Origin: Marinicellulosiphila megalodicopiae
GTDB lineage: Bacteria > Pseudomonadota > Gammaproteobacteria > Pseudomonadales > Natronospirillaceae
Reading direction: 5' to 3'
Length of the DNA: 32,000 nucleotides
NCBI RefSeq assembly: GCF_045862395.1
Contig: NZ_AP023087.1
Coordinates: 4,282,450-4,314,449 of the forward strand
Shown here piece by piece: positions 4,479 through 29,613 of the stretch (position 1 is its first letter; each line of letters begins with the position of its first letter). The notes beneath the pieces were generated by a model. The model did no database searches. It saw only the letters and a program-made list of their open reading frames with translations, and was not told where the DNA came from. The position numbers and the translations under genes were made by a program.

Positions 4479-4512
4479 AAAAAGTCACAAAGATTACTCT
4501 TTGTGACTTTTT
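4479..4512 (-). terminator. Rho-independent terminator after the GH16 gene (possibly bidirectional)
   Basis: Perfect 14-bp inverted repeat AAAAAGTCACAAAG-ATTACT-CTTTGTGACTTTTT. Confidence 0.9.
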
Positions 4513-4537: not shown

Positions 4538-7348
4538 TTATTCGCCTCTATAATGATCTAATGTAATTTTCAAAATACCACCACTTGCGCTGACTTGATT
4601 TGGACTAAATTTCGCATCGTTTTCACCAAAAGTCCAATTCGCTAGACTCCAACGGTTAGTATCAAGAGTATTAAAATCATCAGTCCACTGCAATACAAAA
4701 TTACCTGTGTTTTGATCAAGTGATGAGTATGACAAGTAATCTAATTCCATAGAAACTGGATACACAGAATCATCAATCGCTCCCACCCACTCTGCAATAT
4801 TTGCAGGCCAAAGGTTTAAACGTATTCCTTGCAGACTTGTTAAACTTGCGTATTGATCAACTGTCATATTTTCTTTTCCTGCTCTAGACAAAAATTGTCC
4901 ATCTAAGAAAAATTCAACACGATCTGGATACCAATCCATACGGTACAAATGAAAATCATCTGCTAAAGATTGTACTTGTGTATGCAGTGCATCACTTGTA
5001 ATACGCTCTGACGCTTTACCAGTAATAATATTCGTTTGTAAATCAACGGCATTATTTTTACCTAACACCTCCATATCAATTTCTTCCCAAGGCTCAGGAT
5101 CGACTTCACTGCCATTTTTGTAAGTAAAATAACCATTAACAATACCACTACCTTTTGCCGCTTTCATTCTTAATTCAATACTACCGTATAGATATAGATC
5201 TTCGGAGTAGATTTCGCCGGATGAATATAGCTTGTCATCGTTTAACGAATAATCAACTTCTTTAGGTGGCGTTACAATAACCGAACCGTCCGATTTTGAA
5301 ATTTCTAAATATTTAATTCTGATCGCTTCTTCTTTATATAGTTTTGGAAGATTTAAAGCAGCAAACTGATTATTATCACTTTGTTGTGTACCAGTTAAAT
5401 AATTACGGTAAGTATTTCGCGATTTTGTTTCAGCAACAAAACTCATGTCCGATGGAACCAAATCTTTTACATCATTAAAAGAAACAGTTTGTACACCCCA
5501 GTTTGCAACTTCTTCACGATAAATTAAACTGCTCACTGGCACGCTAACTCTTAGCCATTGATCATGGTAATCACGATCAATCGTTAAATTAATTGTGCCA
5601 TGAACATCACCTTGCGTCGCATAATCATCACCAGGAATAGGATCAACGCCGTCGTAGTTTAATTGGATATCTAAGTAAAATTCACCATCGTCAAATTCAT
5701 CAAGTTGCGCTGAGGTTAAACCACTATATGCACTGCGAACTTCTGTATTAGTTGGTAATACTGAGTTTGCAGAATCGATATAAATATCCATTGTGATCGT
5801 ACCTAAATCTGCAAACGATGCATTATCATTTGAAACTGGGAATTTAAATCCATTACCATGCTGTGAATCCCAATCTGTATATTTTTTCACTAGAATATTG
5901 TTGATTGATTGTGCACCGTTACAGTTAGCATTCGCGGTATAGCCTTTATCAATCACGTAGTCAGCCGTTGATTGAGCGATACCATCCCATTCTGTTGCAT
6001 TAGAATTCACATGACTCCAATCGTTATTGATGTTTGACATAGAGCCATCAACCAATAAATATCCGTCATGATCAATTACAGGATTTAAACCACATGTATT
6101 TATTGCATACAGTTTATGTTGAGCGCCTGCTGGAAGTGCAATTAACGAATAACTTTCATCTCCAGTTGTGACTGCAGCTTCTACTGTAATCATCACAGGT
6201 GTTTCAATTGTATTAATGCTATCTTTGACAGTAAACGTAGCAGTATACACACCTTCATTTACAATTGTGGTAGTTGCAGTTTCGCTATTAAATGCTTCAT
6301 CATTTATTAACCATGAATAGCTTAAATTTGCATCATCTGCATCGGTTGCTGTTCCAGAAACAGTAAATGACTGTCCTGCTGTAACTGTGTAACTTGAATT
6401 AACGCTCACAACGGGTGCCACATTTAATTCAACTAACACGCTGATTGTTTTTATAGTTGGCTGATTTATTGAATCATCTGCCGTTAACTCAACTAAAAAA
6501 GTTTGGCTTGGTTGAGTTAAAGAAAAAATATGAGTTGGATTTTCTAAAGTTGAATCTCCTCCATCTTTAAAATCCCAATAATAGGTTATGCCATCACTTT
6601 CAGGATCAGAGGCATTTGCCATAAAATCCACCGAAACGGTATCAATAGTTTTTACACCAATTTGAAATGAAGGATTAGCAACAGGCGGATAATTTACTCC
6701 AACTTGTTTAGCAGGTACTGTAACTTCAACCATTTTAGTAGCTTTATTATTATCAGTGTCTGTTACGCTTAGTTCGACATTATGCACTACTATTGAATCA
6801 CCTAATACATAGTCATGAATTGGGTTTTCTAAACTTGAATCATTACCATCTTTAAAGTCCCAAAAATAAGTTAATTGATCGCCATCTGCATCTGCAGCAT
6901 TTGCTGTAAACGTAGCAGAGCCAGTCGAGGAAATTTGAACAACCGGATCAAGTGTAGGTGTCCTATTTTCACTTGAAGTAACAGCAGGAACAAATACATT
7001 TACAATTTTAGATTTAAATTCTCCTTTACTGTCATACACAGTTAATTCAACTTCATAAGTTGCATCCTCATTCAATTCAGGAAATTTATGTTCAAATGAT
7101 GTTGCGCTTGATGATGTCGGTGAACCATCTTTAAAATTCCAGACATAAATTAAACTGTCGCCATCAGCATCGAATACTGTTGGGTTAAGTGTCACTGTAT
7201 TATTTACTGCTGTTGTTGTGTTAAAACTAACCACAGGGGCTGCGTTATCTTCAGTATTTGTATTATTTGATGTTGACTCAGGATCAACACAACCTACGCC
7301 TGCAAAAATTGCAATGCTGCTGGCCGCACAAAGCGCTTTAAAGTTCAT
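4538..7348 (-). CDS. Lipoprotein with about four PKD/Ig-like repeats, an uncharacterised (possibly carbohydrate-binding) middle region, and a C-terminal circularly permuted GH16 domain (lichenase-type 1,3-1,4-beta-glucanase candidate; 936 aa)
   Basis: Lipobox-like FAGVGC; repeated YxWDFKDG PKD motifs; PWEEIDMEVLGK catalytic motif; GEIYSEDLYLYGSIELRMKA...FTYKNGSEV; N-terminal-type GH16 strand FVLQWTDDFNTLDTNRWSLANWTF is at the C-terminus. Confidence 0.85.
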   Translation of the reverse strand: MNFKALCAASSIAIFAGVGCVDPESTSNNTNTEDNAAPVVSFNTTTAVNNTVTLNPTVFDADGDSLIYVWNFKDGSPTSSSATSFEHKFPELNEDATYEVELTVYDSKGEFKSKIVNVFVPAVTSSENRTPTLDPVVQISSTGSATFTANAADADGDQLTYFWDFKDGNDSSLENPIHDYVLGDSIVVHNVELSVTDTDNNKATKMVEVTVPAKQVGVNYPPVANPSFQIGVKTIDTVSVDFMANASDPESDGITYYWDFKDGGDSTLENPTHIFSLTQPSQTFLVELTADDSINQPTIKTISVLVELNVAPVVSVNSSYTVTAGQSFTVSGTATDADDANLSYSWLINDEAFNSETATTTIVNEGVYTATFTVKDSINTIETPVMITVEAAVTTGDESYSLIALPAGAQHKLYAINTCGLNPVIDHDGYLLVDGSMSNINNDWSHVNSNATEWDGIAQSTADYVIDKGYTANANCNGAQSINNILVKKYTDWDSQHGNGFKFPVSNDNASFADLGTITMDIYIDSANSVLPTNTEVRSAYSGLTSAQLDEFDDGEFYLDIQLNYDGVDPIPGDDYATQGDVHGTINLTIDRDYHDQWLRVSVPVSSLIYREEVANWGVQTVSFNDVKDLVPSDMSFVAETKSRNTYRNYLTGTQQSDNNQFAALNLPKLYKEEAIRIKYLEISKSDGSVIVTPPKEVDYSLNDDKLYSSGEIYSEDLYLYGSIELRMKAAKGSGIVNGYFTYKNGSEVDPEPWEEIDMEVLGKNNAVDLQTNIITGKASERITSDALHTQVQSLADDFHLYRMDWYPDRVEFFLDGQFLSRAGKENMTVDQYASLTSLQGIRLNLWPANIAEWVGAIDDSVYPVSMELDYLSYSSLDQNTGNFVLQWTDDFNTLDTNRWSLANWTFGENDAKFSPNQVSASGGILKITLDHYRGE

Positions 7349-7860
7349 TTATCTTCCTCTTCTCATAGAATGAGAATGTAAATTAATAGTGATGAAATAT
7401 GTTTAAATTTTTATTATAAAAAATTAATAAATTGCTTATAAAATTTTAGGTCAAATATAGTCAACCTTTTAAAATTACAAATCAATGTCACTATATTTTG
7501 ATATATAAATTGTGAGACCTAATAGACATAAAATCGCCTACTAATTTACAAAACATTACATAAAGGTATACTTTAAATACATTATAGTTATGTGACACAG
7601 TGTCACATAACTCGAAAATACCCTTTAAAATAAGACCTTTTAACAGACAAAATTTCTAAAAAAATCCAAAACTTCATACAAAACATAACATTAATTTTGT
7701 ATTTTCTTATTAATTAAGCAATTGGAGTGATTATAGAATTTGTTTAAATTTAATGATAAAAACCTTTGTACTGAGTCATTATTTTTTCATACTCAGTTCA
7801 TCCTTTATTAAAAAATCTTCCTTGATTTTATATTGTTAAGTAGCTTTTAAATAACTATGT

Positions 7861-7917
7861 TTAGTACTTTTTTTTAGCAGCTTTTTCAGCAGCTTTTTCA
7901 GCAGCTTGTTTCTGCAT
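7861..7917 (-). CDS. Possible 18-aa Ala/Lys/Glu-rich mini-ORF (MQKQAAEKAAEKAAKKKY)
   Basis: Manual translation; internally repeated GCTGCTGAAAAA; 24 bp downstream of the SDR stop. Confidence 0.2.
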   Translation of the reverse strand: MQKQAAEKAAEKAAKKKY

Positions 7918-9839: not shown

Positions 9840-10922
9840 ATGGGAATCACTATGTTTAATATCACTAAAAACAAGCAGCCTCACTTGCTCAACCAATATA
9901 AAACGCATCTTAGTGCATTACTAGATCGTACACTACTTCGAACAGACTTAAGTGACACGCAAAAAGAATTATTAATAGAGTTATGCAAAACATTAGACAA
10001 CGCAAATAACTGGCAAGTCGCTTACGATATTGAACTGCAAATAATCGAACATTTAGATGAAGATGAACTCCAAGCTTGTTGGTCTAGAAAACTGGCTGAC
10101 AAAGAAGATTTAACAGAATCATTGCAAAAATTTTATAAAACGCAAAGTGAATTGAAATTAGAAGGATCGAAGCTTAAATCCATGCTTGCTAAATTAGTTT
10201 GCGATTTGCAGTGGCGCTTTGAGGTAATTAGAGTGCGCTCTAATTTTGCAGCAAGAACTCGTTTTTTAATTGCCTGTATGTTTTTACTGTCCTTTTTTAT
10301 TTTCTTCACTCCAACATTAACAAACACATTTTTAAATATAGAATTATTTAAAGATAACTTACGTTTGTATTATTTATTTACAGCGGCAAGTGCTGGATTA
10401 TTAGGCGCCTCTTTTTCACAGCTCACATCAATGCGGACCAATTTATCACATGCCACAATCGAACAAATTCGAACCATGAGCCATTTTAGTTATGTGGTAG
10501 CAAGGGGGGTAATTGGTGCAGGGGCAGGATTAATTATGTTTTACATTATTCAATCTGGTTTATTTGATTCAGTAATTTTCCCCAAATTTATTGTAGACCA
10601 AAGTCAACTATTAGATATTTTACAAACTCAACAGGCCGAGCAAACTCGCTTTACTGAAGCTGGTGGAAAATTACCTATGGTGGCGCACGACGTGATGAAT
10701 GCTAAAACAAAAATGTTGGAAAGTTCGAAAACCGTTCAAGTAATGGCAACAGCTCACAGCAATGAGAACCTTTTGCAAGTAGGCAGTTTGCAAAAACCGT
10801 CTCAAGGTATTTCTCTTTTAATAGTTTGGTGTATTGTTGCCGGTTTCTCTGAAAAATTAATTCCTGGTTTATTAAACAATGCAGAAAAAAAAGCATTAGC
10901 AGAATCGGAAAAAGCTAATTAA
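9840..10922 (+). CDS. Hypothetical membrane protein (360 aa; start may be the inner ATG at 9852)
   Basis: ORF track; hydrophobic segments FLIACMFLLSFFIFF, YYLFTAASAGLLGASF, VIGAGAGLIMFYIIQ; cytosolic N-terminal helical region. Confidence 0.7.
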   Translation: MGITMFNITKNKQPHLLNQYKTHLSALLDRTLLRTDLSDTQKELLIELCKTLDNANNWQVAYDIELQIIEHLDEDELQACWSRKLADKEDLTESLQKFYKTQSELKLEGSKLKSMLAKLVCDLQWRFEVIRVRSNFAARTRFLIACMFLLSFFIFFTPTLTNTFLNIELFKDNLRLYYLFTAASAGLLGASFSQLTSMRTNLSHATIEQIRTMSHFSYVVARGVIGAGAGLIMFYIIQSGLFDSVIFPKFIVDQSQLLDILQTQQAEQTRFTEAGGKLPMVAHDVMNAKTKMLESSKTVQVMATAHSNENLLQVGSLQKPSQGISLLIVWCIVAGFSEKLIPGLLNNAEKKALAESEKAN

Positions 10923-10945
10923 TATTCAACTATCAAATATTTAAG

Positions 10946-10990
10946 AACCAAAAATTAAATAACCAAAAATTAAAGAACCGAAAATTAAAA
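10946..10990. repeat. Three exact-period 15-bp units (AACCAAAAATTAAAT / AACCAAAAATTAAAG / AACCGAAAATTAAAA)
   Basis: Read directly. Confidence 0.9.
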
Positions 10991-11020
10991 AGCCCAAACT
11001 TTAAAAGTCTGGGCTTTTTT
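10987..11020. terminator. Bidirectional rho-independent terminator between convergent genes
   Basis: AAAAAGCCCA-AACTTTAAAAGTC-TGGGCTTTTTT. Confidence 0.85.
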
Positions 11021-11024
11021 GGGT

Positions 11025-11600
11025 TTATGGCCAATTACGAATAATAATTTCCTCTATTATTAAATTGGCTGATTGTTGTTTATATGTAGCCCTAATTTTA
11101 TCTTTAAGTTTATGTTTTGCTTGCAGATAGTATAATGAGTCTGCTTGTAATAATTGTTTTTGTAATTCATCCAACTGGTTATTCACGCTTTTTTTAGCCT
11201 CATCAAACATTCTTGCGTTTCGTTCATCGTTGGTTGCATCTAATTGTTTTTGTTCAATTAAGGTTGCCTCATGTTTGGTTAGCATTATCTCAGGTGCGTC
11301 CAAATAAATTGTATTGTTTTTATATTCGCTATTAAAATTCCAATCTTTTGCATCAACTGACATTTCAAACTCTAAACTCCATTTGTATTGAACAATGCCT
11401 TTTCCAAGGCCCAGCCCTTTAGTATCTTTAATCGTGTCATTAAATAAAATATCAAATTCAATCAGGTTAAGCGTTTGAATTTGATTAATAGTGTTTGGAT
11501 CAAAATATTTTGAACTGACTTGTTTGGGAATATTTGCACCGATGATCATGCCGATTTCAATAATTAAAATTAAAAATACAACTTTCAAAAAATTATTCAT
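11025..11600 (-). CDS. Hypothetical membrane-anchored protein (191 aa), end of the diheme/P450 cluster; DUF4230-like at low confidence
   Basis: ORF track; N-terminal hydrophobic anchor FLKVVFLILIIEIGMIIG; overlaps the upstream gene by 8 bp. Confidence 0.6.
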   Translation of the reverse strand: MNNFLKVVFLILIIEIGMIIGANIPKQVSSKYFDPNTINQIQTLNLIEFDILFNDTIKDTKGLGLGKGIVQYKWSLEFEMSVDAKDWNFNSEYKNNTIYLDAPEIMLTKHEATLIEQKQLDATNDERNARMFDEAKKSVNNQLDELQKQLLQADSLYYLQAKHKLKDKIRATYKQQSANLIIEEIIIRNWP

Positions 11601-12240
11601 GATCGTGATCCTTTGCTTCTAAACCTTGCTCTGTATCTTGAAGGCTTTGCTCATCTTTAGTGAATCGTTTTACTACAAAATACACAATGGTCGATACAAT
11701 CATTACCGCCACAACATACGAAGTTAATATTTCAAATGCAGACACTGTAAAATTCAAACCTTTTGAAGCACCTAATAAAACAGGAAAACCCCAAGACACT
11801 AATGACACAGACCCAATTAATGTCATGATTATTTTTTGCTTATGGGTAATTGAATAGAATAATGTTTTCCCTTCATTATTATTTAATATCGGCAAAATAA
11901 ATCGATGCAATAAATAGCCATTAAATGACAACACAACCACAATGCTCACCTTTGACCACACTTTTGGATTTAGGACATTTTCAGGTTCAAAAATAGAATA
12001 ATGAATGATAAACCCAAGACCCGTTACCCATAAGATACACAAACCAATCGTGACTAGATTTGTTAAAAAATGCACCAATTTTAATTTTTCACTGCTTATC
12101 GGTTCAAATTGCAAAAATCGGATAATGATTAAATCGGATATCCAAGCACCACCCGCTCCAAAAGCCAGCCCAATAAAATGAAAAATAATTAATAATGTTT
12201 TGATATCTAATGCTTCGAAAATATTCACTGTATTAACCAC
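11593..12240 (-). CDS. Integral membrane protein (215 aa), probably four or five transmembrane helices
   Basis: LLIIFHFIGLAFGAGGAW, NLVTIGLCILWVTGLGFII, VSIVVVLSFNGYLLHRF, IMTLIGSVSLVSWGFPVLLG, YVVAVMIVSTIVYFVV. Confidence 0.7.
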   Translation of the reverse strand: MVNTVNIFEALDIKTLLIIFHFIGLAFGAGGAWISDLIIIRFLQFEPISSEKLKLVHFLTNLVTIGLCILWVTGLGFIIHYSIFEPENVLNPKVWSKVSIVVVLSFNGYLLHRFILPILNNNEGKTLFYSITHKQKIIMTLIGSVSLVSWGFPVLLGASKGLNFTVSAFEILTSYVVAVMIVSTIVYFVVKRFTKDEQSLQDTEQGLEAKDHDHE

Positions 12241-12466: not shown

Positions 12467-14302
12467 CTACAACGTTTTTAGATACTCAAGCAATGCCCAA
12501 ACACTTTGTTTATCATCACTCCAATCTAATTTATAAGTTTTACCATCTAAAGTAATGTCTTTATCATGTCCTGCATTACTAATTGATGGAGAACTTTGGG
12601 TATCAAATACATACCCTTCTTGTTCATCCCAATTATCCAATTCCCACTTAAACCCTACTAATTGAGTGTCGAAATCTAATTGGCTTTTTACAAATACATC
12701 AGGACGCTCATTTGGCACTAGCATATGATAAAGCGTAGGCACTGAACCATTATGCAAATAAGGCGCTTGCGCCCAAAGCCCAGGAAACGGCAATGCGTTA
12801 TATCCATTTTGCACTCTTGGTGGCAACATGACCTGTTTACTTTGCCCAACTAACGAAACCCCTTTATATTCTGCACAAGGCTGAACTTGCTTTCCTTCCA
12901 TTTCAATGGTGGTAGTTGGAGAACAATTTGCGTCACCTGCAAAACTTGCTTGCGCGCCGACTGTAATCACAGTGCCTGCCACTTTTGCACGCCCCATATC
13001 AGTTCCCATAATCGAATATACACGACCATTATTTGGTTGATGACAATCCGCACAGTTATCTTTGAATAATTGCTGTCCTGTTTTTGCTAGATCCACATCA
13101 ACGTCAAATGGATAAATAGCAGGTGGTAGTTTTTGCAATACTTTTTCAGCATGGGCTGAAACACTGATATCAATATTATCAAATCCTAGTGTAATTTGAG
13201 CAGCAATGTTTTTATACATTGGTAACGGGATATGACCATTCCATTGACCGCCACCATTTATTAATCGTGTTTCATCTTCATTCCAAACTGGATCGTGAGA
13301 GTCTTGATCCCATACAACCATTATGTCTGTCACACCATGACTGGCTGGCATAACTAATGGTGCAATTAACTTAGTTGTCATCTTTTCATCAAAGGTTTGA
13401 AATGCTGTGGCCGCATTAAACCCAATGGCATCTTCCATGCCGGCGAATCCAGAATTAATTCTATCTTTAATATTTGGATACAGTTTTTCGGTTAATGTCA
13501 CCCAACTTGCATACACGTTTTCTTGGTGTGTCACAAATTCAGCGATAATATCTGTCGCATCATTTTTAAATAATTGAATTTGAGCTGCCTCATAATTTGC
13601 ATCAAATACTCTTCCGTCGTATTGATAATTATTGTAAAAATAATTTGGATCTTGAGCCTCTACTTTATCTAGCGCGGTTAAAAATGCATCCACTACTAAT
13701 TGTTTTTTGGCAGACTCGTCAGTTTCATTGCCATAAATTTTATTTAAAGATTGGACAATACGCTCCCGATAACCAATCACGTTAAATTCAGAATTGATAC
13801 CGCCATCTAAATATTCAAACTCACCACTTGGTAATCTAACTCGACCAATATGACACCCTCCACAGGTAAACGAGGCGTAATCAATATCTGCAGTTAAATC
13901 TTTTCTCACTAAACCAGTAAAGCCAATTCCACGTGGAAATGGATACCCTACTAAGCGCTCATCATGAAACAATCCCATAACCGATAAAAAATTATCTTCA
14001 TCACCCCAATATTCAGGTGCAACTTCAGGCAATAATTTTAAGACAATCAAGGGAATACCATTGGTTTCGCTCACTGGAAAGTTTGCAAAATGATCATAGT
14101 TTACTTGGAATGTATCAATATGATCGGCAATATCCGCACGACGCTTTGCTTGAGCAAGCACCCAATCTTTAGGTACTGGTTTTACATAAGTGGATTTAGG
14201 TGCTTCTAACCGACTATCAAATAAACCACTTACTTTACCGTAAGCGAGTAATCCAATAATAGGCAATACAACAGCCGAAATTTTAAACAGAGGGTGATTC
14301 AT
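12467..14302 (-). CDS. Diheme c-type cytochrome (611 aa), RoxA/MauG-like superfamily, paralog A
   Basis: Two CxxCH motifs (FTCGGCHIGR, DNCADCHQPNNG); C-terminal GLWAQAPYLHNGSVPTLYHML...ALLEYLKTL; single N-terminal hydrophobic anchor. Confidence 0.85.
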   Translation of the reverse strand: MNHPLFKISAVVLPIIGLLAYGKVSGLFDSRLEAPKSTYVKPVPKDWVLAQAKRRADIADHIDTFQVNYDHFANFPVSETNGIPLIVLKLLPEVAPEYWGDEDNFLSVMGLFHDERLVGYPFPRGIGFTGLVRKDLTADIDYASFTCGGCHIGRVRLPSGEFEYLDGGINSEFNVIGYRERIVQSLNKIYGNETDESAKKQLVVDAFLTALDKVEAQDPNYFYNNYQYDGRVFDANYEAAQIQLFKNDATDIIAEFVTHQENVYASWVTLTEKLYPNIKDRINSGFAGMEDAIGFNAATAFQTFDEKMTTKLIAPLVMPASHGVTDIMVVWDQDSHDPVWNEDETRLINGGGQWNGHIPLPMYKNIAAQITLGFDNIDISVSAHAEKVLQKLPPAIYPFDVDVDLAKTGQQLFKDNCADCHQPNNGRVYSIMGTDMGRAKVAGTVITVGAQASFAGDANCSPTTTIEMEGKQVQPCAEYKGVSLVGQSKQVMLPPRVQNGYNALPFPGLWAQAPYLHNGSVPTLYHMLVPNERPDVFVKSQLDFDTQLVGFKWELDNWDEQEGYVFDTQSSPSISNAGHDKDITLDGKTYKLDWSDDKQSVWALLEYLKTL

Positions 14303-14312
14303 AATTTATACC

Positions 14313-16136
14313 TTAAAGTGTTTTTAAATATTCAATAATAGCCATTGCACCTGGCTTATCATCGGACCAATTTAATTTGTATTCAATACCATTTTCATTC
14401 ACATCTTGGTCGTGACCTTTATTTGAAAATGTTTCAAAACTTTTTGTATCAAAAACATAACTATGCTCTGCTGATACGGTTTGATGATTGTCTTGTACCC
14501 ACTGATAGCCTAAATATGTTTGATCATAGGTTAACTGACTTTTGATAAACGTAGTTGGTCGCTCATTAGGCACTAATAAATGATAAATAGTTGGCACCGA
14601 TCCGTTATGTAAATATGGAGCTTGAGCCCAAATTCCACTTAATGGTCTTGCGTTATAACCATGATGTTGATTATTAGGTGACATAATTAAATCTTCTTTT
14701 CCTTCTAAAGACACGCCACCAAATTGCGCACAGGGTTTCACTTGTTCACCATATAACTCAACCTTTGTTTGAGTAGAACATTCTTTAAAAAAACCACTGA
14801 TGCCGCCTTTTCTAATTAATGTATTTACAACATAACTACGGTCAAGATTCACACCAAGGTTACTATAAACCTTACCGTTAAATGGTTGATGACATTGCGC
14901 ACAGTTGTCTGCAAATAATGCTTCGCCTTTTTTAGCAAGTTCAACATTCACATCAAATGGATACACAGACGCAGGAAGTTTATCCAATAATTCGACAGAA
15001 AATGCAGACACTCTTAAATCATTATCATCTAAGCCAATTGTTAACTGTGCCGCCATATTACGATACATAGGAATAGGGATATTACCATTGTATTGCCCGC
15101 CACCATTAATTAACGTTTGATGAGAATTATCCCAATGCGCTTTTCTTTCATCTTGGCGCCATACAGTCATAAAATCCGTTATACCTGGAGAGCTCGGTAA
15201 AATGTGTTTGGAAAATAATTTTCCAAAAAAAGTCGAATGGGCATCATTATATGAATTAACTGTAAATATTCCGGTTGCATCTGCCATGCCGGGAAACCCT
15301 TCTAAAGAACGTGTCTGGAATCCCTTGTAATTTTTATCTAGTAACGCAGCATAACCGGTATAATCTTGCGTGGTAGTTTTATAAAAATCACCAATTAACG
15401 ATCCAGATTTCTCAATAAAAAGTTTAATTTGATTTTTTTCATATGCCAAATCAAAGTTAACTACATCATTTTTATATTCATTATAAAAGTAACTATCACT
15501 TACGGATATTGCTTTTTCAAGTGCTGTTAAAAATGCATTTTCTAGTAATTGTTGCTGTTTAATCGGATCAGATTCATCTCCTATTATTTTTTGAAGGGTT
15601 TGATAAGTTTTCACTCGATAAGCAACAATATTAAATTCAGTATTCACGCCGCCATCAATATAATGAATTTTATTATTTTGATCTATCACGCGCCCAATAT
15701 GACAAGCGCCACAAGTAAAGGATGTATAATCTATTTTGCCCATAGGCTCAATTCTAGCTAAGCCACTTATTCCTATACCACGAGCTATTGGATAATTTTC
15801 CTGCCTTGTATCTTTAAATAACCCTACGACATCTAAAAAGTTTTCTTCACTGCCCCATAATTCTGGTGCAATAATAGGTAATAATTTTAAAATAATGAAA
15901 GGTGTTCCATCTGTTTGGCTAAAAGCATAATCGGCAAACCAATCAAATGCTTCTTGATTATCTGCAATATATGATTCTTTTTGCTGTATTTTTTGTTGCT
16001 GAAATTCAGACCAATTTTGTGTAACAGGTATTACAAATGGTTTACCTGTTGGGGATGCTAATTGTTTTGTGGGAATTGCTTTATATATTGTGATGCCTAC
16101 CAATAAAAACATGGCAATTAATAATATTTTTTTCAT
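14313..16136 (-). CDS. Diheme c-type cytochrome (607 aa), close paralog of the 611-aa protein
   Basis: FTCGACHIGR, DNCAQCHQPFNG, GIWAQAPYLHNGSVPTIYHLL...AIIEYLKTL; 10 bp from the next gene. Confidence 0.85.
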   Translation of the reverse strand: MKKILLIAMFLLVGITIYKAIPTKQLASPTGKPFVIPVTQNWSEFQQQKIQQKESYIADNQEAFDWFADYAFSQTDGTPFIILKLLPIIAPELWGSEENFLDVVGLFKDTRQENYPIARGIGISGLARIEPMGKIDYTSFTCGACHIGRVIDQNNKIHYIDGGVNTEFNIVAYRVKTYQTLQKIIGDESDPIKQQQLLENAFLTALEKAISVSDSYFYNEYKNDVVNFDLAYEKNQIKLFIEKSGSLIGDFYKTTTQDYTGYAALLDKNYKGFQTRSLEGFPGMADATGIFTVNSYNDAHSTFFGKLFSKHILPSSPGITDFMTVWRQDERKAHWDNSHQTLINGGGQYNGNIPIPMYRNMAAQLTIGLDDNDLRVSAFSVELLDKLPASVYPFDVNVELAKKGEALFADNCAQCHQPFNGKVYSNLGVNLDRSYVVNTLIRKGGISGFFKECSTQTKVELYGEQVKPCAQFGGVSLEGKEDLIMSPNNQHHGYNARPLSGIWAQAPYLHNGSVPTIYHLLVPNERPTTFIKSQLTYDQTYLGYQWVQDNHQTVSAEHSYVFDTKSFETFSNKGHDQDVNENGIEYKLNWSDDKPGAMAIIEYLKTL

Positions 16137-16168
16137 TTTATTTTTCTTATCGTTATTATTAAATAAAA

Positions 16169-16190
16169 AAGCCTCTCATAAGAAAGGCTT
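16169..16190 (-). terminator. Intra-cluster terminator or attenuator after the P450 gene
   Basis: Reverse strand AAGCCTTTCTTATGAGAGGCTTTTTTATTT: stem plus T-tract between 16203 and 16136. Confidence 0.65.
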
Positions 16191-16202
16191 AATAGGGTTA
16201 TC

Positions 16203-17534
16203 CTATTTCCATTTTAATTTGTAATCTTCTGGGAAAGGCCCATCTTTATAATCCATCTCAGATGCAGATTGAATATCTTTTCGCATTAAAACCTGCTTTA
16301 CCATTTCAGGAATCATTGCCATTCCTATGTATTTACCCACACAGTCGTGAGATGCAAATCCATAGTTAAAATTATGATACCAATTACGATTTGCATTAAA
16401 TTCTTCAGGATTTTCATAAGAATAATCATCAAACATTGCAGACTGAGTTAACGTTAAAACATTGGTTCCTGATGGAATTTTTGTTTCACGATCCGTGCCT
16501 TTTGCTATGGTGTAATCCATTGATGTTTGACGAAATAGATATGGGCTAATCGGTACAAATCGTAAAGCCTCCCAGACCATCGCATCAATTTTATCTGTAT
16601 TAGAATCAAGAGATGCCGCTTTGGCTTGTTCAAATAATTCAGGACGTTCAATAAAAAAGTTAATCACTTGCGCAACGGCTTGTGAGGTAGTTTCTACGGC
16701 ACCAATTAATAAGCCACCAGCGTTTGTACCAATACGCGTTAATGGAAAATCAACTTGAGGAGCGAATGAGCTACGCAACATACGTTTTACAATATCATCT
16801 TTAAATTCATATGCTGGCTTTTTAGCGATGGCTCTAAATATATTTAAAACTTGTACAGCACGACCCAATAACCGATCTTTGATTTGTACCGTTAGAATTT
16901 TACGAATCATTAACACAGTAACATAATCGACTAATTCTTTAGAACACTGTGCATGAATGTCTACAATTTCATCAAATCGCTCTTTAGAATTTAAGTCAAA
17001 TGGCTGATTATGGAATGTATTATATTGATTCCAATATGACCATTTTAATAATTTTTTACGACTAATTCCGTCCAAACCAAAATATTCTTGAACTAATATC
17101 GCAGGAACCATACGACAATATTCATTTACAATTTCAATTTCTCCGTCGGCATCATCCAAAATTTTCTTAGATGAATCACGAATTAATTTTCTAATTCTTG
17201 GAATATCTTCGCGATTTAACATACCTTGCATAATTGATTTTTCACGATAATGTAGCGCATCATCATCGTGTGCCATTAAATATCCAGGTTCAGTATCAGT
17301 GACACCCATCTTTGGTTTATATAACGCGTTGGTAAAAATCGTCGGCATTTGTAATGCATCACGAACATCTGTAAATAATGCAAGTAACGTACATTCAGGC
17401 GTCACCAATACTGGACGTTCCTCTCGTAACTGTTTAAAAAATGGAAGCGGTTCATCATGCATCCATTTTTTCACTAATGGAAATTTGTCCGCATCAGCAG
17501 CGGCATCAAATAACTCAAGATAATTTGTAGTCAT
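16203..17534 (-). CDS. Cytochrome P450 (443 aa) with variant heme-binding loop
   Basis: I-helix LLIGAVETTSQAV, EALR (ExxR), NPEEFNANR, Cys-ligand loop YGFASHDCVGKYIG. Confidence 0.85.
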   Translation of the reverse strand: MTTNYLELFDAAADADKFPLVKKWMHDEPLPFFKQLREERPVLVTPECTLLALFTDVRDALQMPTIFTNALYKPKMGVTDTEPGYLMAHDDDALHYREKSIMQGMLNREDIPRIRKLIRDSSKKILDDADGEIEIVNEYCRMVPAILVQEYFGLDGISRKKLLKWSYWNQYNTFHNQPFDLNSKERFDEIVDIHAQCSKELVDYVTVLMIRKILTVQIKDRLLGRAVQVLNIFRAIAKKPAYEFKDDIVKRMLRSSFAPQVDFPLTRIGTNAGGLLIGAVETTSQAVAQVINFFIERPELFEQAKAASLDSNTDKIDAMVWEALRFVPISPYLFRQTSMDYTIAKGTDRETKIPSGTNVLTLTQSAMFDDYSYENPEEFNANRNWYHNFNYGFASHDCVGKYIGMAMIPEMVKQVLMRKDIQSASEMDYKDGPFPEDYKLKWK

Positions 17535-17544
17535 GATTCACCCC

Positions 17545-19692
17545 TTATAATGTTTTCAAATATTCAATTAAATCCCAGCGCTCTTTTTCAGATAACGCAG
17601 GTAATACTTCACCATTGTTTTGAGCAGTTTTTCCAGCACCGTATTCGTGCCCTGTGTTCATGTCACCAACACGAGTGGTAATAAATGCACTGCCATCATA
17701 ATCTTTTGATTTAAATCCAACTCGATTAGCGTCAAACTCACGACTGCCAACTACAAATTCATCTGGTCGATATTCACCCTCAGCAGGATCAGTGTCTAGT
17801 TTTTTAGGTAATAATAAATCGTATAAAGTTGGAACCGAACCATTATGTAGATAAGGAGCAGTAGCCCAAATTCCATTTAAGGCACGACCTTTATAAGCCA
17901 ATAATGAACTGTATGGGTTAGAAGTTGTATCAGCAACATAATTACCTTTTTTAACGGTTTCTGGCATTTTATTTTCAAAAAATGAAGACCCCAAAACATA
18001 CAAACGATCTAACCAACGACGTATAAAGAACTTATCAGGGTCGGGTGTTGCAATCACTCCTTTTGTTGCAGAAGTTAATATTTGCAATACAGGTGCGTCC
18101 TCACTAATAAATACATCACCAACTCCTGTTATAGATTGAACAGTGTGCTGAAAATTACCAGATTTACCTGTTGCCATCACACCATTTATAGCAGCTGCTT
18201 TATCAGTACCGACTAAGTTTATATCCATCATATTTGCGATGATGATTCTGTCCGCATTATTTCGATCGACCACTTCGTGACATGATTGACAGTATTGAGC
18301 ATAAACTAGCTGTCCACGTTCTGCTTTAACTTGATCGATTTCACCTAATATTTCTTGTGGCCAAACTGGTGACTGCAAGCGTTTAAGTTGAGCTTCTAAA
18401 CGGCGTAAATTTGTGACATCGATTGAAGATTTAAAATTAACTACTTCGTTTTTATTTTTTTGATCGGTTATTAAAGTAGATAATTCAAATCCATTAGGCT
18501 CATGTGATGTCCAATCTAAAATGCCAAACACACCAATCACTTCTCCGGTATTACGACCAAGCGGCCCAACACCTGCATTATTTGCTACACCATTCCACTG
18601 AGTATAATCTGCCTGTCCTATATCCCATAAAAATGGATAGCTCACTGGAGCATTTGGTTCATTAAAAATACTATTACGTACTCGTAATAAATCACGTTGA
18701 TTTAAACCTGGGTATCCTGGTTCTGTAGATGCTAATCGATCAAGTACCAATCCAAACTGTTTATCCACAATAATATTTTCATTTACGCCTTCAAGTACTA
18801 AATCGATTTGATCACGAGTTAAAACTCTACGACGTTCGCCGTTAGTTCCTGGTGCCGTGACCATTTCCATGGTATTGGCCAACTGCTGTTTGTTAATCAT
18901 ATGCTGTAATACACGGTTATAAATTCGTCCAAATGCATCTAGGCGACCATAACCATAATCGATATGACTGTGGTTTACTGTATTGTATAAACTGATTGTT
19001 TTTAGCCATTGCTCAGTTGACTCAATAACTTTAGCTTCTTTTTTAAAGTCATTATTACGTGCTAAAACAGTTTCAACATAACGTGTTTTTTTAGCTTCAT
19101 CTGCTAACGTGGCACGCATTGATTTTTCAATTGCAGTTAAAAAGCCAACCATATCGGCCATTGCTGGACCGCCATCAATACGAATTGCCGATGTGATACC
19201 ATCTTTTGTGAAATTAACTTGGTTAGTATGACAAGCAGCACAGGTGTAACCGATGTAGTCATTTCCCTGATATGTATCTTTAACTAAACCTACTGGTAAA
19301 CCATCTGGGTTTAAGAATGTTTCTTTTTGCGGTAAATACCGATACTTATCAATATTGTGGTTGTCACGTAACAATTTATTTGAATTTTCTTGCTCTAATG
19401 ACATAAATAAATCATATGGCATTAATGCTGAACCTTGAGTGGTATTATAAAACCAAAGGCTTTCTGCTTCTGTCCAACCTTGATCTAAATATACAGGGGT
19501 TGTAAAACTTTCCCCAAATTCACCATTTTCAAGTGCAATTGCACCTCGGTCGGGATCATCATCCCAGTTTTGGTAGGTTTTACCTGCAATTAATGCGATC
19601 ACCATTAATAAAATAATGACACCAACAATGCGCCCTGAGTATTTCAATAGGTAAAAAATTGCTGCGAAAATGGATTGGAAAAATGTAGCCAT
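17545..19692 (-). CDS. Diheme c-type cytochrome (715 aa), RoxA (rubber oxygenase)-like
   Basis: YTCAACHTNQVNF, QYCQSCHEVVDR, ESLWFYNTTQGSALMPYDLFMSLEQ, GIWATAPYLHNGSVPTLYDLLLP, LIEYLKTL; N-terminal transmembrane segment. Confidence 0.8.
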   Translation of the reverse strand: MATFFQSIFAAIFYLLKYSGRIVGVIILLMVIALIAGKTYQNWDDDPDRGAIALENGEFGESFTTPVYLDQGWTEAESLWFYNTTQGSALMPYDLFMSLEQENSNKLLRDNHNIDKYRYLPQKETFLNPDGLPVGLVKDTYQGNDYIGYTCAACHTNQVNFTKDGITSAIRIDGGPAMADMVGFLTAIEKSMRATLADEAKKTRYVETVLARNNDFKKEAKVIESTEQWLKTISLYNTVNHSHIDYGYGRLDAFGRIYNRVLQHMINKQQLANTMEMVTAPGTNGERRRVLTRDQIDLVLEGVNENIIVDKQFGLVLDRLASTEPGYPGLNQRDLLRVRNSIFNEPNAPVSYPFLWDIGQADYTQWNGVANNAGVGPLGRNTGEVIGVFGILDWTSHEPNGFELSTLITDQKNKNEVVNFKSSIDVTNLRRLEAQLKRLQSPVWPQEILGEIDQVKAERGQLVYAQYCQSCHEVVDRNNADRIIIANMMDINLVGTDKAAAINGVMATGKSGNFQHTVQSITGVGDVFISEDAPVLQILTSATKGVIATPDPDKFFIRRWLDRLYVLGSSFFENKMPETVKKGNYVADTTSNPYSSLLAYKGRALNGIWATAPYLHNGSVPTLYDLLLPKKLDTDPAEGEYRPDEFVVGSREFDANRVGFKSKDYDGSAFITTRVGDMNTGHEYGAGKTAQNNGEVLPALSEKERWDLIEYLKTL

Positions 19693-20394
19693 ATCAATAT
19701 CCCTGTCATGCTTACCTGCACGAATTTATTGTTATTGTTTTAAGAAAGTCACTAGGTCTCGGACTTTGTTTGCGGTTCTACTGGCACCAGCGCTTTACTT
19801 TTACCAAGCAGATTAATAAATATACAAGCCGTATAATTATTTAGCTAAAATAACCGATTAGGCTTCTGAAATCTAGCACTTTTTGAATGGCGTTAAATAG
19901 AAAGGGGGATACTTAAAATCATTAATAAACTCAATCTATTCAGCTCAAATGTTGATCAAATATAAAGCATATAACAATTTAGTTACTTCATAGTTTTAAG
20001 ATCATATAATTTATCAACCACTGTAATCACCCGCATTAAATCATCCGTTTTAAACTCTATATATAGATAAGTATCCACATATCGTAATGTTTTGAAATTA
20101 ATTCCATTACTCACTCTACTTTGATAGTAATCAAATAACAGGATAACAGGCCTTTATTTTTAAATTTCATTCATGTGTAAACTTCAATTATTTCTAAATT
20201 TTCATTACCTATCCAAAAAAATATATGCAATTAATACATTCTCCTAATATCTTAAAATGCTTGATTGAGCTAAAAGATACAAAACTTTATTAGAATAAAG
20301 TGCATTAAATGATTGTTTCATATTAGAACCACAACTAACTAAATTCAAAAAAGCTCAATTGTGGATATCTGTTTTTACAAACATACAAATAAAA

Positions 20395-20606
20395 GTGACC
20401 AACAAAATATTCAACATCGGACGCGACGGATTTGATGCAGGTCAAGATGCGTTTTCTTTTGGTATTAGTGCAAAACAATATGTGTCGATGGCACTTGTTT
20501 AAAAGCAACAACTACTCGTGATTTGACGGACATAGTTGGATTAGGTTGTTTGATTAAACTGGAAGGTGGCGGACGCAATGTTCGGTATCAGTTAAGTTTG
20601 GATTAG
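20395..20606 (+). pseudogene. Remnant of the C-terminal region of a Fic-family protein, frameshifted
   Basis: Manual translation: NIGRDGFDAGQDAFSFGISAKQYVSMALV* then, in another frame, KATTTRDLTDIVGLGCLIKLEGGGRNVRYQLSLD*, resembling the winged-helix tail of DUF4172/Fic proteins. Confidence 0.6.
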
Positions 20607-21034
20607 GTTTGATTTGGTTTAGTGGATTTGATTTAGTAAATAAAGTTTTATTAGAAAAGTATTGTGAAGCAAGCGATTTGACCTAGAATCGAATCTCTTT
20701 TTTGTAGGTCGTATGCTTTCACACAGGGATGTGTGCAAGGGGCGTGAGCATGCTTAAAGGGATTTAAGTAGTAGAGCAATGTCTGGAACTAATTGCCGAG
20801 AACGCGGTAGCTTTGCTGCGAAAAACTAATCAGGGTTTTTGAGTGTCCATACCACACTAGTGACCCAAGCCCGAGCAGGTTTGTTTTGCGGATTTTAGAT
20901 GACAGATGGGCGCGCGACCCTTTGGCTCTTAATTATATAATGTATAATGGCGTTTATGAAAACAGCTAACTTATATTTTTATGTAATATGTTTTAAATGC
21001 ATATTGCATTACCACACCAAAATAAGAATTAATA

Positions 21035-21711
21035 ATGAGTAAGAAAAAAGATAAAAACGCCCGAAAAAAATAGTTCAAAAAAAAGCACTAAAACAAAAAA
21101 ATAAATCCATTTCGTTTCAAGCAAGTCAGGCTGTAAAAGAGAAAACAGCCGTTGAAAAATTAAATTACCGCATCACCGAGGATCCATTTTCAGTATCAAC
21201 GAAACAAACACTACCCGAAGAAATAGAAAAAAGGAAACAATATCTTTTTGATAACTTAGAAGAGCGCCCAGAAGATTTAATAGAAGAGCTCGAACTTTTA
21301 GTGACTCAATATCCTCAAAATAATATCCTCTCGAACTTTCTTTCTAATGCCTATCTATTAACTAAACAAATGGAAAAACATGAAGCATTATCAGAAAAGA
21401 CTTTTTCAGAGTGTCCAGAATACCTATATGGACGTGTTCATTGGGCAAAAATATTAATGGATCGCAACGATTACAAACAAGCCAATGAAGTATTTAACAA
21501 TACATGGGATTTAAAGAAACTGTACCCACAACGTAAAGTATTTCACATAACAGAGGTACTAGCATTTTATAGTACAGCTATTACCTACCATGAAAATATG
21601 CAAGAAGAGAGTGAATTTTTATTTGCCTTTGATGTATTAAGAGAGCTTGATGTTGAAGAAGATATATTATTACAATATTCCCCATCAGTTATGAAATGGC
21701 GTTTTCTTTGA
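21035..21711 (+). CDS. TPR-like protein (~225 aa) interrupted near its start by an A7-run frameshift; the ORF track shows only 21301..21711
   Basis: ATG at 21035 reads MSKKKDKNARKK* ; the -1 frame after CGAAAAAAATAG continues IVQKKALKQKNKSISFQASQAVKEK...LEERPEDLIEELELLVTQYPQNN... without a stop into the 136-aa ORF. Confidence 0.6.
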
Positions 21712-21948
21712 TGTGTGTTTAGTCGATAAATAGAAGGCTTTTATCTTTAAAGGGTCGGTTGTTTCGTAATACTTTTTGAGTGTCTATGTCAAAATAAAGG
21801 CCTGACCCCAAGGACTCCAGCACAGTCAGCTATTATATTTAACTTAAAACCAAGAAAAATTAGTTTCAAACATTGCCTGCAAGTATGGCTGTCATATACA
21901 CAATCAAATCGGCAGCCTGATGATCATATATTTAAATTAATATCAAAA

Positions 21949-22089
21949 CGGCAAGTAGGTAATCGACCCGGAAGAATAGAGCCAAGAGCGATTAAACGAA
22001 GGCCAAAACCTTATAAATTATTGACCGTTACACGCGAAGTTGCAAGAGAGGATATTAGAAGAAATGGCCACCCAAAGAAACAGAAATAG
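21949..22089 (+). pseudogene. C-terminal remnant of an IS4-family-like transposase
   Basis: Manual translation RQVGNRPGRIEPRAIKRRPKPYKLLTVTREVAREDIRRNGHPKKQK*. Confidence 0.75.
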
Positions 22090-22188
22090 TACTTTATTAA
22101 AAGACTTTATCTCTTAACTTAGTGCCATTCAACTCTGACCCTCTTGATTTTTTTACTCATTCATAGCGAAATATCAGAATTCAATAGT

Positions 22189-23907
22189 TTATCCAAACGC
22201 TTCACCAAATAACCAATTAATAGGGTCTTTATCATACAACTCTAATATTACATTATTTTGAATGTATTGTTTTTCTTCTTTATTTAAAATATTTAATTTA
22301 TTGTCTTTGTCAAGAATCTCATCCAATGTGGATTGCCCCAAATTCACAAAATATTGTAATTCACTGCTTTTTATAATTTCAATAATAACTTTAAATATCA
22401 TTGATTTTTGTCTAGGGTCCATCTCGGAAAAAATACAACCATCATGTGCAATAAAACTTAGTAAGCTGGGATTTAATTGATAAAGAAGTAGATCGTAGCA
22501 GAAAATTTTAACCTCATTAATCCCTTGTGATCCATCTCGTGGAATTTGAGCATCAATATTAAACAAATATTTTGCGTCGTTGGTTTCACTTATCTCTAAT
22601 GAACCTCCGTGGTTTAAATAAAACTTCTTAACCAGTGCCCTGAACATATTCTCAATTGTCTCAAGAAAAATTTTAGAATCAACTAGATATTTTACAGCTT
22701 CAGCTTTTATATTTGCATTTTCCAAATCATATTGGCTTTTATCTTCTTTAAAACTTTGTAAAATCTGGCGATATTTATCCAACTCGCCAATTTCACTTTC
22801 AAAACTTCTTATTCTTTCGTTAATTGAGTTGTATTCTTCTAGCGCCCCTTTTGAATCTAGATCTTTTAAAATAGAATCTCTAATTCGCTCATTGTCTTTT
22901 AAATTAACATTCAAAGTATTCAATTGATCTTCTAATTCTAGTATTTCAGAATTAATTCTACTAGCTCTATTTTTTAATAAATTTTTATGGAAATCTGTAG
23001 CCTGATCTAATCGAATAGAGATTTTATCCCCAAAGAAAAACGATGCTTCTTCATAAATCTTCTTCACTTTTACAAGATCTATTTCTTTTACCCCCGCTTC
23101 ATCAAGGCTTTGTTTTTTCCGCCCCATACTTTTAATTACTTCATATATTTCATTTCTAATTTTGTTTATAATTTCAGTTTTAGCGTCAGCTTCTCTTTTA
23201 TATTTATCATAATTTTCAGCTATCACAAAATCTTGTTTATTCTTAATTAAAGTCTTTAACTCATCCTTTAAGTCATTTATATTACTCTCCCCTAACAAGC
23301 TTTCATAATTTTCTATAACACTTTTAGCTTTTTTTAACTTATTTAATTTTTCTTTTACAATTGATTTCTTAGTTACTAGATTAGTATTAATGCCTAGTAA
23401 TGCTAAGTTGGTATACATTTGATGATAATCTTGCTCTGGTCTACCTTGCTGGGCAATTATACTAGAATAGTAAGTCCCGCCATATCGCCTAGCAAATACA
23501 TTTAATATCTGCTTAAAGCTAACACCATTATAAAGCTCATTTTTAATGAATATTTTTTTAAGTTCAGATGGGTAATTTGATTTAACTATTTTTTCACCGT
23601 TTAAAATATGGTGTGATTGGCCGAAGTCTTTTTCAACCTTATAAGGCTTACCTTCATGCTCAAATTCTAAATAAAAAACACCATAACCAGAAAGGAAATT
23701 TTGAATTTTTTTCTCTGTAGGTTTCGTTGGGTCAAGATACGAGCCAAGCATTAAATGAATTAAGTTAAGTGAAAAACTTTTCCCTACTCCATTATATGTT
23801 TTTTTATCGGCACTCGTAAGTTGCAATCCTGCCAATATATTAAGTCCGCTTTCAAATTTTAACGTCTTAAATTTAGAATTATTAGAACTTAATTTTAATA
23901 ATTTCAT
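22189..23907 (-). CDS. DUF2326 / RecN-SMC-like ABC ATPase, ABC-3C system component (572 aa)
   Basis: Walker A-like TYNGVGKSFSLNL, central coiled coil, Walker B/C-terminal region LLSFIAHDGCIFSEMDPRQK. Confidence 0.85.
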   Translation of the reverse strand: MKLLKLSSNNSKFKTLKFESGLNILAGLQLTSADKKTYNGVGKSFSLNLIHLMLGSYLDPTKPTEKKIQNFLSGYGVFYLEFEHEGKPYKVEKDFGQSHHILNGEKIVKSNYPSELKKIFIKNELYNGVSFKQILNVFARRYGGTYYSSIIAQQGRPEQDYHQMYTNLALLGINTNLVTKKSIVKEKLNKLKKAKSVIENYESLLGESNINDLKDELKTLIKNKQDFVIAENYDKYKREADAKTEIINKIRNEIYEVIKSMGRKKQSLDEAGVKEIDLVKVKKIYEEASFFFGDKISIRLDQATDFHKNLLKNRASRINSEILELEDQLNTLNVNLKDNERIRDSILKDLDSKGALEEYNSINERIRSFESEIGELDKYRQILQSFKEDKSQYDLENANIKAEAVKYLVDSKIFLETIENMFRALVKKFYLNHGGSLEISETNDAKYLFNIDAQIPRDGSQGINEVKIFCYDLLLYQLNPSLLSFIAHDGCIFSEMDPRQKSMIFKVIIEIIKSSELQYFVNLGQSTLDEILDKDNKLNILNKEEKQYIQNNVILELYDKDPINWLFGEAFG

Positions 23908-24115
23908 CTTGCACCTCCAATTTACCGATTATGTACAAATAATTTATACAATGTATTATTGTTTCAATGCTTATCTTTTTTGGGTAAGTTTTTAATAGCT
24001 CTGAATGAATACAATCAACAGTGAAATCTTTATGCTTTGCCAAATCTATAATGTATGAAGAAATACAAAATAAAGAATCTATTGGCTGTATGGATTTATT
24101 TGGAAGTATCATCAA
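23882..24115 (-). CDS. Small ABC-3C middle-component-like protein (77 aa; true start may be the second Met)
   Basis: MILPNKSIQPIDSLFCISSYIIDL...CINYLYIIGKLEV; overlaps both neighbours (26 bp and 20 bp), consistent with a middle component. Confidence 0.7.
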   Translation of the reverse strand: MMILPNKSIQPIDSLFCISSYIIDLAKHKDFTVDCIHSELLKTYPKKISIETIIHCINYLYIIGKLEVQDEIIKIKF

Positions 24116-27029: not shown

Positions 27030-27273
27030 AACTTTGCACCTTTATATGTAATTAAATAATAAGCCGGGGGTCGGATCCATTTCTTGATGGATCACCTTAA
27101 ATTGTGCCTCTAGTTTTTTGGATCTGACCCCAACCTTGTTGCATTGATAATAAAAAACGAGCAAAAAATTGGATCCGACCCTAAGCTAAACGCATTGATT
27201 AAAACAACGGCTTGTAATGAGTTGAATTTGGTGGGTATTTAACACTATTTTGCGAATTTTTTATACCGCATTT

Positions 27274-29597: not shown

Positions 29598-29613
29598 GAG
29601 AATAAAAAATCAA

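Follow-up and report, generated by a model that had tools for sequence, protein, structure and literature searches.

Among jelly-roll glycanases, the 1,3-1,4-beta-D-glucanase of Fibrobacter succinogenes is usually cited as "the" natural circular permutant; in this enzyme, a Ser-rich repeat tail comes after an N-terminal catalytic domain. The reference for this enzyme (PDB: 1MVE, 1ZM1, and 3AXD) is Tsai et al. 2003 (J Mol Biol 330:607), as cited in PMC4606783. Beyond Fibrobacter, the sources available to us on natural GH16 permutants name only the fungal TOS1 case, through a citation, and the GH16 subfamily paper is silent on permutation (PMC6827312). Here, we analyze a gene within a 32,000-nt stretch of the Marinicellulosiphila megalodicopiae genome (contig NZ_AP023087.1, positions 4,282,450 to 4,314,449; hereafter, the window). 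An intact minus-strand open reading frame (ORF) at 4538..7348 encodes, in one unbroken frame, a protein of 936 amino acids (aa) identical to BCE03544.1/WP_422380619.1, which in the NCBI annotation is named merely "PKD domain-containing protein." The gene product is probably a cell-envelope-anchored modular endo-beta-glucanase with a GH16 lichenase-type jelly roll in the Fibrobacter-type permuted order, a reading to which we assign a probability of roughly three in four. The host (strain TOYAMA8), which is placed in Gammaproteobacteria, order Oceanospirillales, and has a complete genome of 4.65 Mb, is a cellulolytic deep-sea bacterium with numerous secreted carbohydrate-active enzymes (PMC11966569).

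Compared with the Fibrobacter enzyme, the GH16 domain of WP_422380619.1 has the same permuted strand order, breakpoint, and EXDXE triad, and the two are collinear over ~225 residues; however, they have 36% aa identity, they fall on separate deep branches, and the GH16 domain is here at the C-terminus, where it is preceded by a lipobox, four PKD domains, and a domain without any library match (hereafter, the orphan domain). Bacillus and Paenibacillus GH16_21 lichenases (PDB: 1GBG, 1BYH, 3O5S, and 1MAC) have the fold, the EXDXE motif, Phe at subsite -1, and Trp at subsite +1 in common with this domain, and the chemistry of EC 3.2.1.73 is presumed to be shared; they are, however, single-domain secreted enzymes with ~25-30% identity, relative to which the domain here is permuted. 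Circular permutants engineered from the Bacillus hybrid glucanase (cpA16M-59 and relatives; PDB: 1CPM, 1CPN, 1AJK, 1AJO, and GluXyn-1 1AXK) are laboratory constructs with 24-26% identity, and in 1CPM and 1CPN the new termini lie at ~residue 59, the same site as in the natural permutation. Bacteroides ovatus BoGH16MLG (PDB: 7KR6) is a lipid-anchored outer-membrane enzyme, an endo-acting mixed-linkage glucanase that makes oligosaccharides for import. Its likeness to the protein described here is one of functional analogy only: BoGH16MLG has the conventional order, belongs to another GH16 subfamily, and is part of a SusC/D locus, whereas the gene here is solitary. The mixed-linkage glucan utilization locus of B. 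ovatus is described in PMC7974029 and PMC8612152.

The original prediction, made from the DNA of the window, had described a naturally circularly permuted GH16 domain with the strand order of the Fibrobacter enzyme. Its coordinates were exact, as 4538-5240 corresponds to aa 704-936 plus the stop codon and 5066-5086 to codons E755-V761 (EEIDMEV); every peptide that it quoted is present in the protein. Using Pfam, we identified the GH16 profile PF00722 at aa 696-853 (E = 7.7e-25; 87.8 bits versus a cut-off of 22). Because the domain is permuted, this match covered only positions 20-161 of the 175 in the profile; coverage extended to 8-161 when the domain was re-permuted, that is, when aa 880-933 were placed before aa 704-879. 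The NCBIfam equivalogs BglS (98.7 versus 300 bits) and ExoK (97.1 versus 350 bits) scored far under their cut-offs, as expected because these models are built on the conventional order.

We used phmmer to align aa 684-936 against PDB sequences. This analysis identified one collinear match to the Fibrobacter succinogenes enzyme (1mve/1zm1 and mutants; E = 3.7e-44), which spanned query residues 23-247 and chain residues 5-228. Bacillus and Paenibacillus lichenases matched at query residues 24-191 only, against chain residues ~58-211, and the matches to the engineered permutants 1cpm and 1axk reached query residues 222-223. After re-permutation, 1gbg matched over residues 8-211 and 3wvj over residues 12-213, both with improved E-values, and the Fibrobacter match was reduced to chain residues 5-165. 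The C-terminal block (aa 880-933) is thus collinear with 1mve residues ~180-228 in its native position and aligns to 1gbg residues 7-58 once re-permuted, which places the breakpoint between old residues ~58 and 59 (1GBG numbering), where it also lies in cpA16M-59 and the Fibrobacter enzyme. The alignment to the Fibrobacter enzyme shows the motifs FxYxNGSE, EVLGKN, and NIITGKA.

An AlphaFold2 model of the GH16 domain, built with 41 homologs, had a mean predicted local distance difference test score (pLDDT) of 91. The C-terminal block was modeled at pLDDT >90 and forms strands of the sandwich. When this model was compared with the PDB using Foldseek, the top matches were 1zm1 and 1mve, with a template modeling (TM) score of 0.85 (query-normalized) or 0.92 (target-normalized) over 236 sequential columns and a root-mean-square deviation of 1.6-2.2 A, and all of the top 50 matches were GH16 structures. 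Because their termini lie at ~residue 59, 1cpm and 1cpn also align sequentially, over 228-230 columns, whereas conventional lichenases align over just 165-182 columns. This pattern, together with the high pLDDT of the block, indicates that the block is part of the sandwich, as the original prediction required. The 291 aa upstream have no similarity to GH16 by hhalign (probability 0.1), and no ordinary N-terminal block therefore stands in front of the domain. The order of the segments is far from what chance would give, and based on the agreement of phmmer, re-permutation, AlphaFold2/Foldseek, and upstream hhalign analyses, we consider the domain almost certain to be a Fibrobacter-type permuted GH16.

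Of the catalytic and binding residues listed for the Fibrobacter enzyme, 17 of 19 are identical in the protein encoded here (1mve numbering after the equals sign): E712=E11, F741=F40, Y743=Y42, N745=N44, E748=E47, W754=W54, E756=E56, D758=D58, E760=E60, Q771=Q70, N773=N72, R843=R137, N845=N139, W847=W141, W854=W148, W905=W203, and T906=T204. The remaining two, at subsites +1/+2, are changed (Q81 to R782 and E85 to D786), so fine specificity could differ. The triad E756/D758/E760 also aligns to E105/D107/E109 of 1gbg (E105-I-D107-I-E109). In the literature on the Fibrobacter and Bacillus enzymes, E56 is assigned as the nucleophile and E60 as the acid/base. Across 41 permuted homologs, the catalytic triad is invariant, as are most of the matched residues, and the region around the cleft is predicted at pLDDT >95. 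The PDB titles of the Fibrobacter mutants F40I, E85I, and V18Y/W203Y reflect the importance of those positions.

Licheninases of subfamily GH16_21 are characterized by short loops, by EXDXE without a beta-bulge, and by two aromatic residues, a Phe platform at subsite -1 and a conserved Trp at subsite +1 (Viborg et al. 2019, PMC6827312), and GH16_3 laminarinases carry EXDXXE (PMC6827312). By sequence, the domain described here has EXDXE without the beta-bulge and a length of ~230 aa, and the 1GBG residues F92, Y94, W103, and W192 map to F741, Y743, W754, and W854, respectively. The equivalent of Tyr24 is replaced by the neighboring W905, as it is by W203 in Fibrobacter. Based on this conservation, the best-supported and most likely function is that of a retaining endo-1,3-1,4-beta-glucanase (EC 3.2.1.73), and there is a good chance that the protein is an active strict lichenase.

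An alternative is that the permuted GH16 domain has another specificity or catalyzes another reaction, as a broad beta-1,3(4)-glucanase, laminarinase, or transglycosylase adapted to marine glucans. The main beta-glucan of the sea is laminarin, and this predominance speaks for the alternative, as do the two distal subsite residues that differ from Fibrobacter, the deep and long branch on which the domain sits, and its matches to laminarinases; these matches, however, are weaker (E = 1e-8 to 1e-9), and strict lichenases match far better (E = 1e-44 to 1e-18 versus 1e-9). Short loops, an EXDXE motif that lacks the beta-bulge, and a platform of Phe in place of Trp at -1 are marks of GH16_21 (PMC6827312), and with the 17 residues held in common with Fibrobacter they make another specificity unlikely.

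The original prediction had further proposed the horizontal spread of the permuted fold. We used HMMER to search 1.84 billion representatives of 50%-identity clusters, and this analysis identified 2272 relatives of the GH16 domain. Strand order was counted among the 147 nearest representatives listed, with the protein itself and two that a word-indexed search had already returned set aside; 121 were permuted, 9 were conventional, and the remainder were truncated or tandem. All 120 relatives listed by the word-indexed search were permuted as well, and a scan of GTDB species-representative genomes yielded 205 relatives, of which the best 76 loci were all collinear. The GTDB carriers include Cellvibrio (C. 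mixtus, C. fibrivorans, C. fontiphilus, and others), Cellvibrionaceae, Sorangium cellulosum, other Polyangiaceae, Cytophagales, and Pelagicoccus; carriers among Flavobacteriales came from the word-indexed search. Proteins from these groups are uncharacterized and have the same permuted order with 44-50% identity to the domain here; they are its nearest relatives outside the genus. The permuted clade thus occurs in at least five phyla (Fibrobacterota, Gammaproteobacteria, Myxococcota, Bacteroidota, and Verrucomicrobiota), and the permuted order, far from rare, is that of the majority among the 147 nearest representatives. The scattered distribution implies that transfers took place at some time in the history of the clade, but the reading of this one instance as a case of horizontal spread of a rare fold is not supported.

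In a neighbor-joining tree, a rough method, built from 216 columns with 100 bootstraps after the conventional sequences had been put into the permuted order, the permuted sequences formed one clade with a bootstrap value of 96, consistent with one permutation event. WP_422380619.1 and a metagenomic relative, P0211, formed a deep branch of their own (bootstrap 100); the placement of this branch within the permuted clade had a support of 47. Three relatives, P0212 (440 aa), P0323 (511 aa), and P0269 (279 aa), are tandem GH16 proteins with a core-block-core order that can be read as either arrangement. This is the arrangement expected of intermediates in a duplication/deletion route to circular permutation. 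P0212 has two near-identical permuted copies and appears truncated at the end of its contig.

In a further reading, the gene came recently, by horizontal transfer, from Fibrobacter or another fibrolytic bacterium. The scatter of the permuted clade over five phyla is compatible with such a transfer, as is the lack of flanking carbohydrate genes; however, there are no adjacent mobile-element genes, and the GC content of the gene (36.1%; 35.6-36.6% in its three parts) equals that of the genome (36.1%; PMC11966569). The closest relatives outside the genus are 44-50% identical (44-49% for Cellvibrio and Polyangiaceae) and the Fibrobacter structures 36%, the deep branch with P0211 lies outside the Fibrobacter and Cellvibrio groups, and P0211, a protein of the same architecture with 72% identity, is encoded on a separate metagenome contig. 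A recent transfer from Fibrobacter was rejected based on GC content, identity, and tree position, and a recent transfer of any such origin is very unlikely. The protein represents a deep lineage of one large permuted clade, and recent import from Fibrobacter is not indicated.

The architecture of the protein sets it apart from most of this clade. Pfam identified PKD_4 (PF18911; E = 2.1e-36) and PKD (PF00801; E = 1.4e-22), each in four stretches, and the N-terminus carries a lipobox, A-G-V-G-C20, that matches a PROSITE-style pattern written as a regular expression. The Cys that ends the hydrophobic region is kept in P0211 (FAGTSC) and in P0358 (LSAC), a stand-alone relative of the orphan domain. 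On the strength of these patterns, we lean toward the protein having a lipid anchor in the outer membrane. P0211 shares the lipobox, the orphan domain, and the C-terminal GH16 but has a single PKD domain. In contrast, GH16 directly follows the signal peptide in 228 of the 242 single-domain permuted relatives, with CBM6/CBM35-like modules or a type IX secretion system sorting domain after it; in 7 of the 242, GH16 is C-terminal behind >100 residues, and most of the 7 have a lipobox. None of the 242 contains the orphan domain, and a PKD Pfam domain was found in none of the 120 relatives listed by the word-indexed domain search. The original prediction of a C-terminal GH16 domain in a PKD-containing predicted lipoprotein of a marine gammaproteobacterium was borne out in its lipobox, its four PKD domains, and its origin. 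Its claim of a new domain context held in that PKD and permuted GH16 were observed together only in WP_422380619.1 and P0211; it had overlooked the 291-aa orphan domain. The set of modules (lipobox, four PKD domains, orphan domain, and C-terminal permuted GH16) is rare, whereas the permuted GH16 itself is not.

Because the NCBI name mentions PKD only and 75% of the protein is noncatalytic, the GH16 module could be read as catalytically dead, or as a glycan-binding lectin on a surface adhesin whose PKD and orphan domains carry the main function; inactive GH16-like proteins such as Rv0315 do exist (PMC4606783). The E-D-E triad and aromatic platform are, however, intact and invariant across homologs, and the cleft is confidently predicted, which leaves this explanation with very little probability. 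That the apparent permutation is an artefact of assembly, of a frameshift, or of a truncated tandem GH16 duplication, for which the core-block-core relatives P0212, P0323, and P0269 offer a precedent, has a negligible probability and is refuted as far as sequence data allow by an uninterrupted frame of 936 codons in a complete genome, by the lack of GH16-like sequence upstream of aa 704, by an ORF that stops 3 residues past the block and is followed by a terminator, and by the same order in the independent metagenomic P0211 and 240 other proteins.

The orphan domain (aa 393-683) had no Pfam match even at E = 10, no NCBIfam match, and no PDB sequence match by single sequence or profile. We also considered whether the region could be a decayed copy of GH16 or the usual N-terminal block and rejected both readings based on the hhalign probability of 0.1. 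We identified two relatives only: P0211 (57% identity) and P0358 (38% identity in the alignment, 37% by BLASTP with 98% coverage). A search of 5.8 billion proteins with the orphan domain returned one relative, P0358, and two scans of Joint Genome Institute (JGI) metagenome contigs for the domain returned no further relatives. P0358 is a 324-aa stand-alone predicted lipoprotein (...LSAC-GGGG). Its gene (L077:928-1902) lies immediately 3' of a GH43 gene (L077:1-759) with a C-terminal ConA-like domain; L077 is a 2-kb Logan contig (SRR23983634).

The three orphan-domain sequences have in common many aromatic residues, two Cys, and the motifs VKKYGDWD and FVAETK.R..YR.Y. An AlphaFold model based on the three-sequence alignment was poor (pLDDT 51, predicted TM score 0.54), and its C-terminal ~180 residues form a moderately confident beta-sandwich. 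In a Foldseek comparison of this pLDDT 51 model with the PDB, the weak jelly-roll matches were to CBM28, lectin-like proteins, and botulinum toxin HCN (E ~0.01, TM 0.25-0.39). A putative glycan-binding role is a reasonable guess, and it is possible, though doubtful, that the domain could found a new family of carbohydrate- or surface-binding modules.

In the mechanism that we propose, the protein would be exported through the Sec pathway and lipidated at C20, and Val, in place of Asp, at +2 would lead to its sorting to the outer membrane. The four PKD domains would serve as a stalk or spacer, and the 291-aa orphan domain would probably bind glycan or another surface. Catalysis would proceed by retaining double displacement, with E756 as the nucleophile, E760 as the acid/base, and D758 assisting. 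The enzyme would cut mixed-linkage beta-1,3-1,4-glucan at beta-1,4 bonds that adjoin a 3-O-substituted glucose, and the tri- and tetrasaccharides set free would be imported and finished by beta-glucosidases encoded elsewhere.

Several observations weigh against the reading of the gene product as an envelope-anchored lichenase. The nearest characterized enzyme is just 36% identical, the subsite +1/+2 residues are those changed from Fibrobacter, and it is hard to see where mixed-linkage glucan would naturally come from at a deep-sea ascidian. The residue at -3 of the lipobox is Gly, which is atypical, and lipidation, outer-membrane sorting, and surface exposure are predictions from patterns. Support for the role suggested for the orphan domain is limited to weak fold matches and the GH43 neighbor of one homolog. 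We sought a glucan-utilization or polysaccharide-utilization cluster around the gene and found none; the gene is solitary, and a GH3 gene lies 22 kb away.

The features of the gene and its flanks are given in Table 1. The palindrome upstream of the gene occurs once in the window, with 0.01 occurrences expected by chance, and its half-sites (TGTGA...TCACA) are similar to those of a CRP-type site with spacing one base longer; we consider it a candidate operator. The gene is preceded by a 593-nt AT-rich intergenic region, which contains, at 7870-7910, three tandem 12-nt units (GCTGCTGAAAAA, minus strand) just 3' of the stop codon of an SDR gene.

Table 1. Positions in the window of the features of the permuted GH16 gene and its flanks.
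Feature	Position	Strand	Remarks
Perfect 13-1-13 palindrome, AGTTATGTGACAC-N-GTGTCACATAACT (putative operator)	7586..7612		~240 nt upstream of the GH16 gene start codon
Shine-Dalgarno-like GAGGAAG	7353..7359	-	5-11 nt 5' of ATG, read off the sequence
Start codon and predicted type II (lipoprotein) signal peptide, aa 1-20	7289..7348	-	MNFKALCAASSIAIFAGVG-C20, V at +2
Four tandem PKD domains, aa ~36-120, 128-212, 222-306, 310-391	6176..7243	-	Pfam; boundaries approximate
Orphan beta-rich domain, aa 393-683	5300..6172	-	No library match; conserved C419, C476
Low-confidence linker, aa 684-703	5240..5299	-	pLDDT ~50; first 20 residues of the GH16 model
GH16 core segment, aa 704-879	4712..5239	-	Equals residues ~59-212 of a conventional lichenase
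Catalytic motif E756-I-D758-M-E760 (EXDXE, no beta-bulge)	5069..5083	-	Aligned to 1mve and 1gbg
Transposed strand block, aa 880-933 (FVLQWTDDFNTLDTNRWSLANWTF...ILKITLDH)	4550..4711	-	Equals the N-terminal ~58 residues of a conventional lichenase
Intrinsic-terminator-like hairpin	4479..4512	-	15-bp stem, then T run; 26 nt past the stop codon

The neighbors of the GH16 gene encode an S-adenosylmethionine (SAM) methyltransferase, an SDR protein, and a LysR regulator. The stretch 25185-31554 encodes a RibD_C-domain protein and, 20-27 kb from the GH16 gene, an Edd/IlvD-type dehydratase, a PfkB sugar kinase, and the GH3 beta-glucosidase-like protein; the GC contents of the dehydratase gene (46%) and the GH3 gene (43%) are well above the window average of 35%. 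Products of the GH16 enzyme could be processed further by the GH3 enzyme, though the latter is encoded 22 kb distant.

Other parts of the window contain further genes. An operon-like run on the minus strand (12467-19692) encodes proteins of 611, 607, and 715 aa, all three large and carrying RoxA-like dihaem cytochrome c domains, and, at 16203-17534, a cytochrome P450; the combination is unusual and suggests an oxidative pathway. At 22189-25109, also on the minus strand, a gene for a DUF2326 protein (572 aa) adjoins one for a SMEK-domain protein (337 aa), and the pair looks like a phage-defense or abortive-infection module. An HNH endonuclease gene is located at 617-1006, and Pfam gave no match for three ORFs at 9840-12240 (360, 191, and 215 aa). 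Long ORFs are nearly absent from the stretch 19700-22189, which has no Rfam or tRNA match; scans of the whole window for Rfam families and tRNAs were empty.

The presence of a permuted GH16 on this predicted lipoprotein opens no new biological question in itself. If the orphan module does found such a binding family, it would direct deep-sea glycanases anchored in the envelope to a particular marine glycan, for example beta-glucan of tunicates or algae, or the surface of cellulose. In the search for new enzymes, a stalked, alkaliphilic deep-sea lichenase that also carries an uncharacterized 291-aa module could merit expression. For annotation, permuted GH16 proteins score too low with profile models that follow the conventional order. 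For the family as a whole, the permuted order is not peculiar to one rumen bacterium; it belongs to a large clade, apparently of single origin, that extends over at least five phyla.

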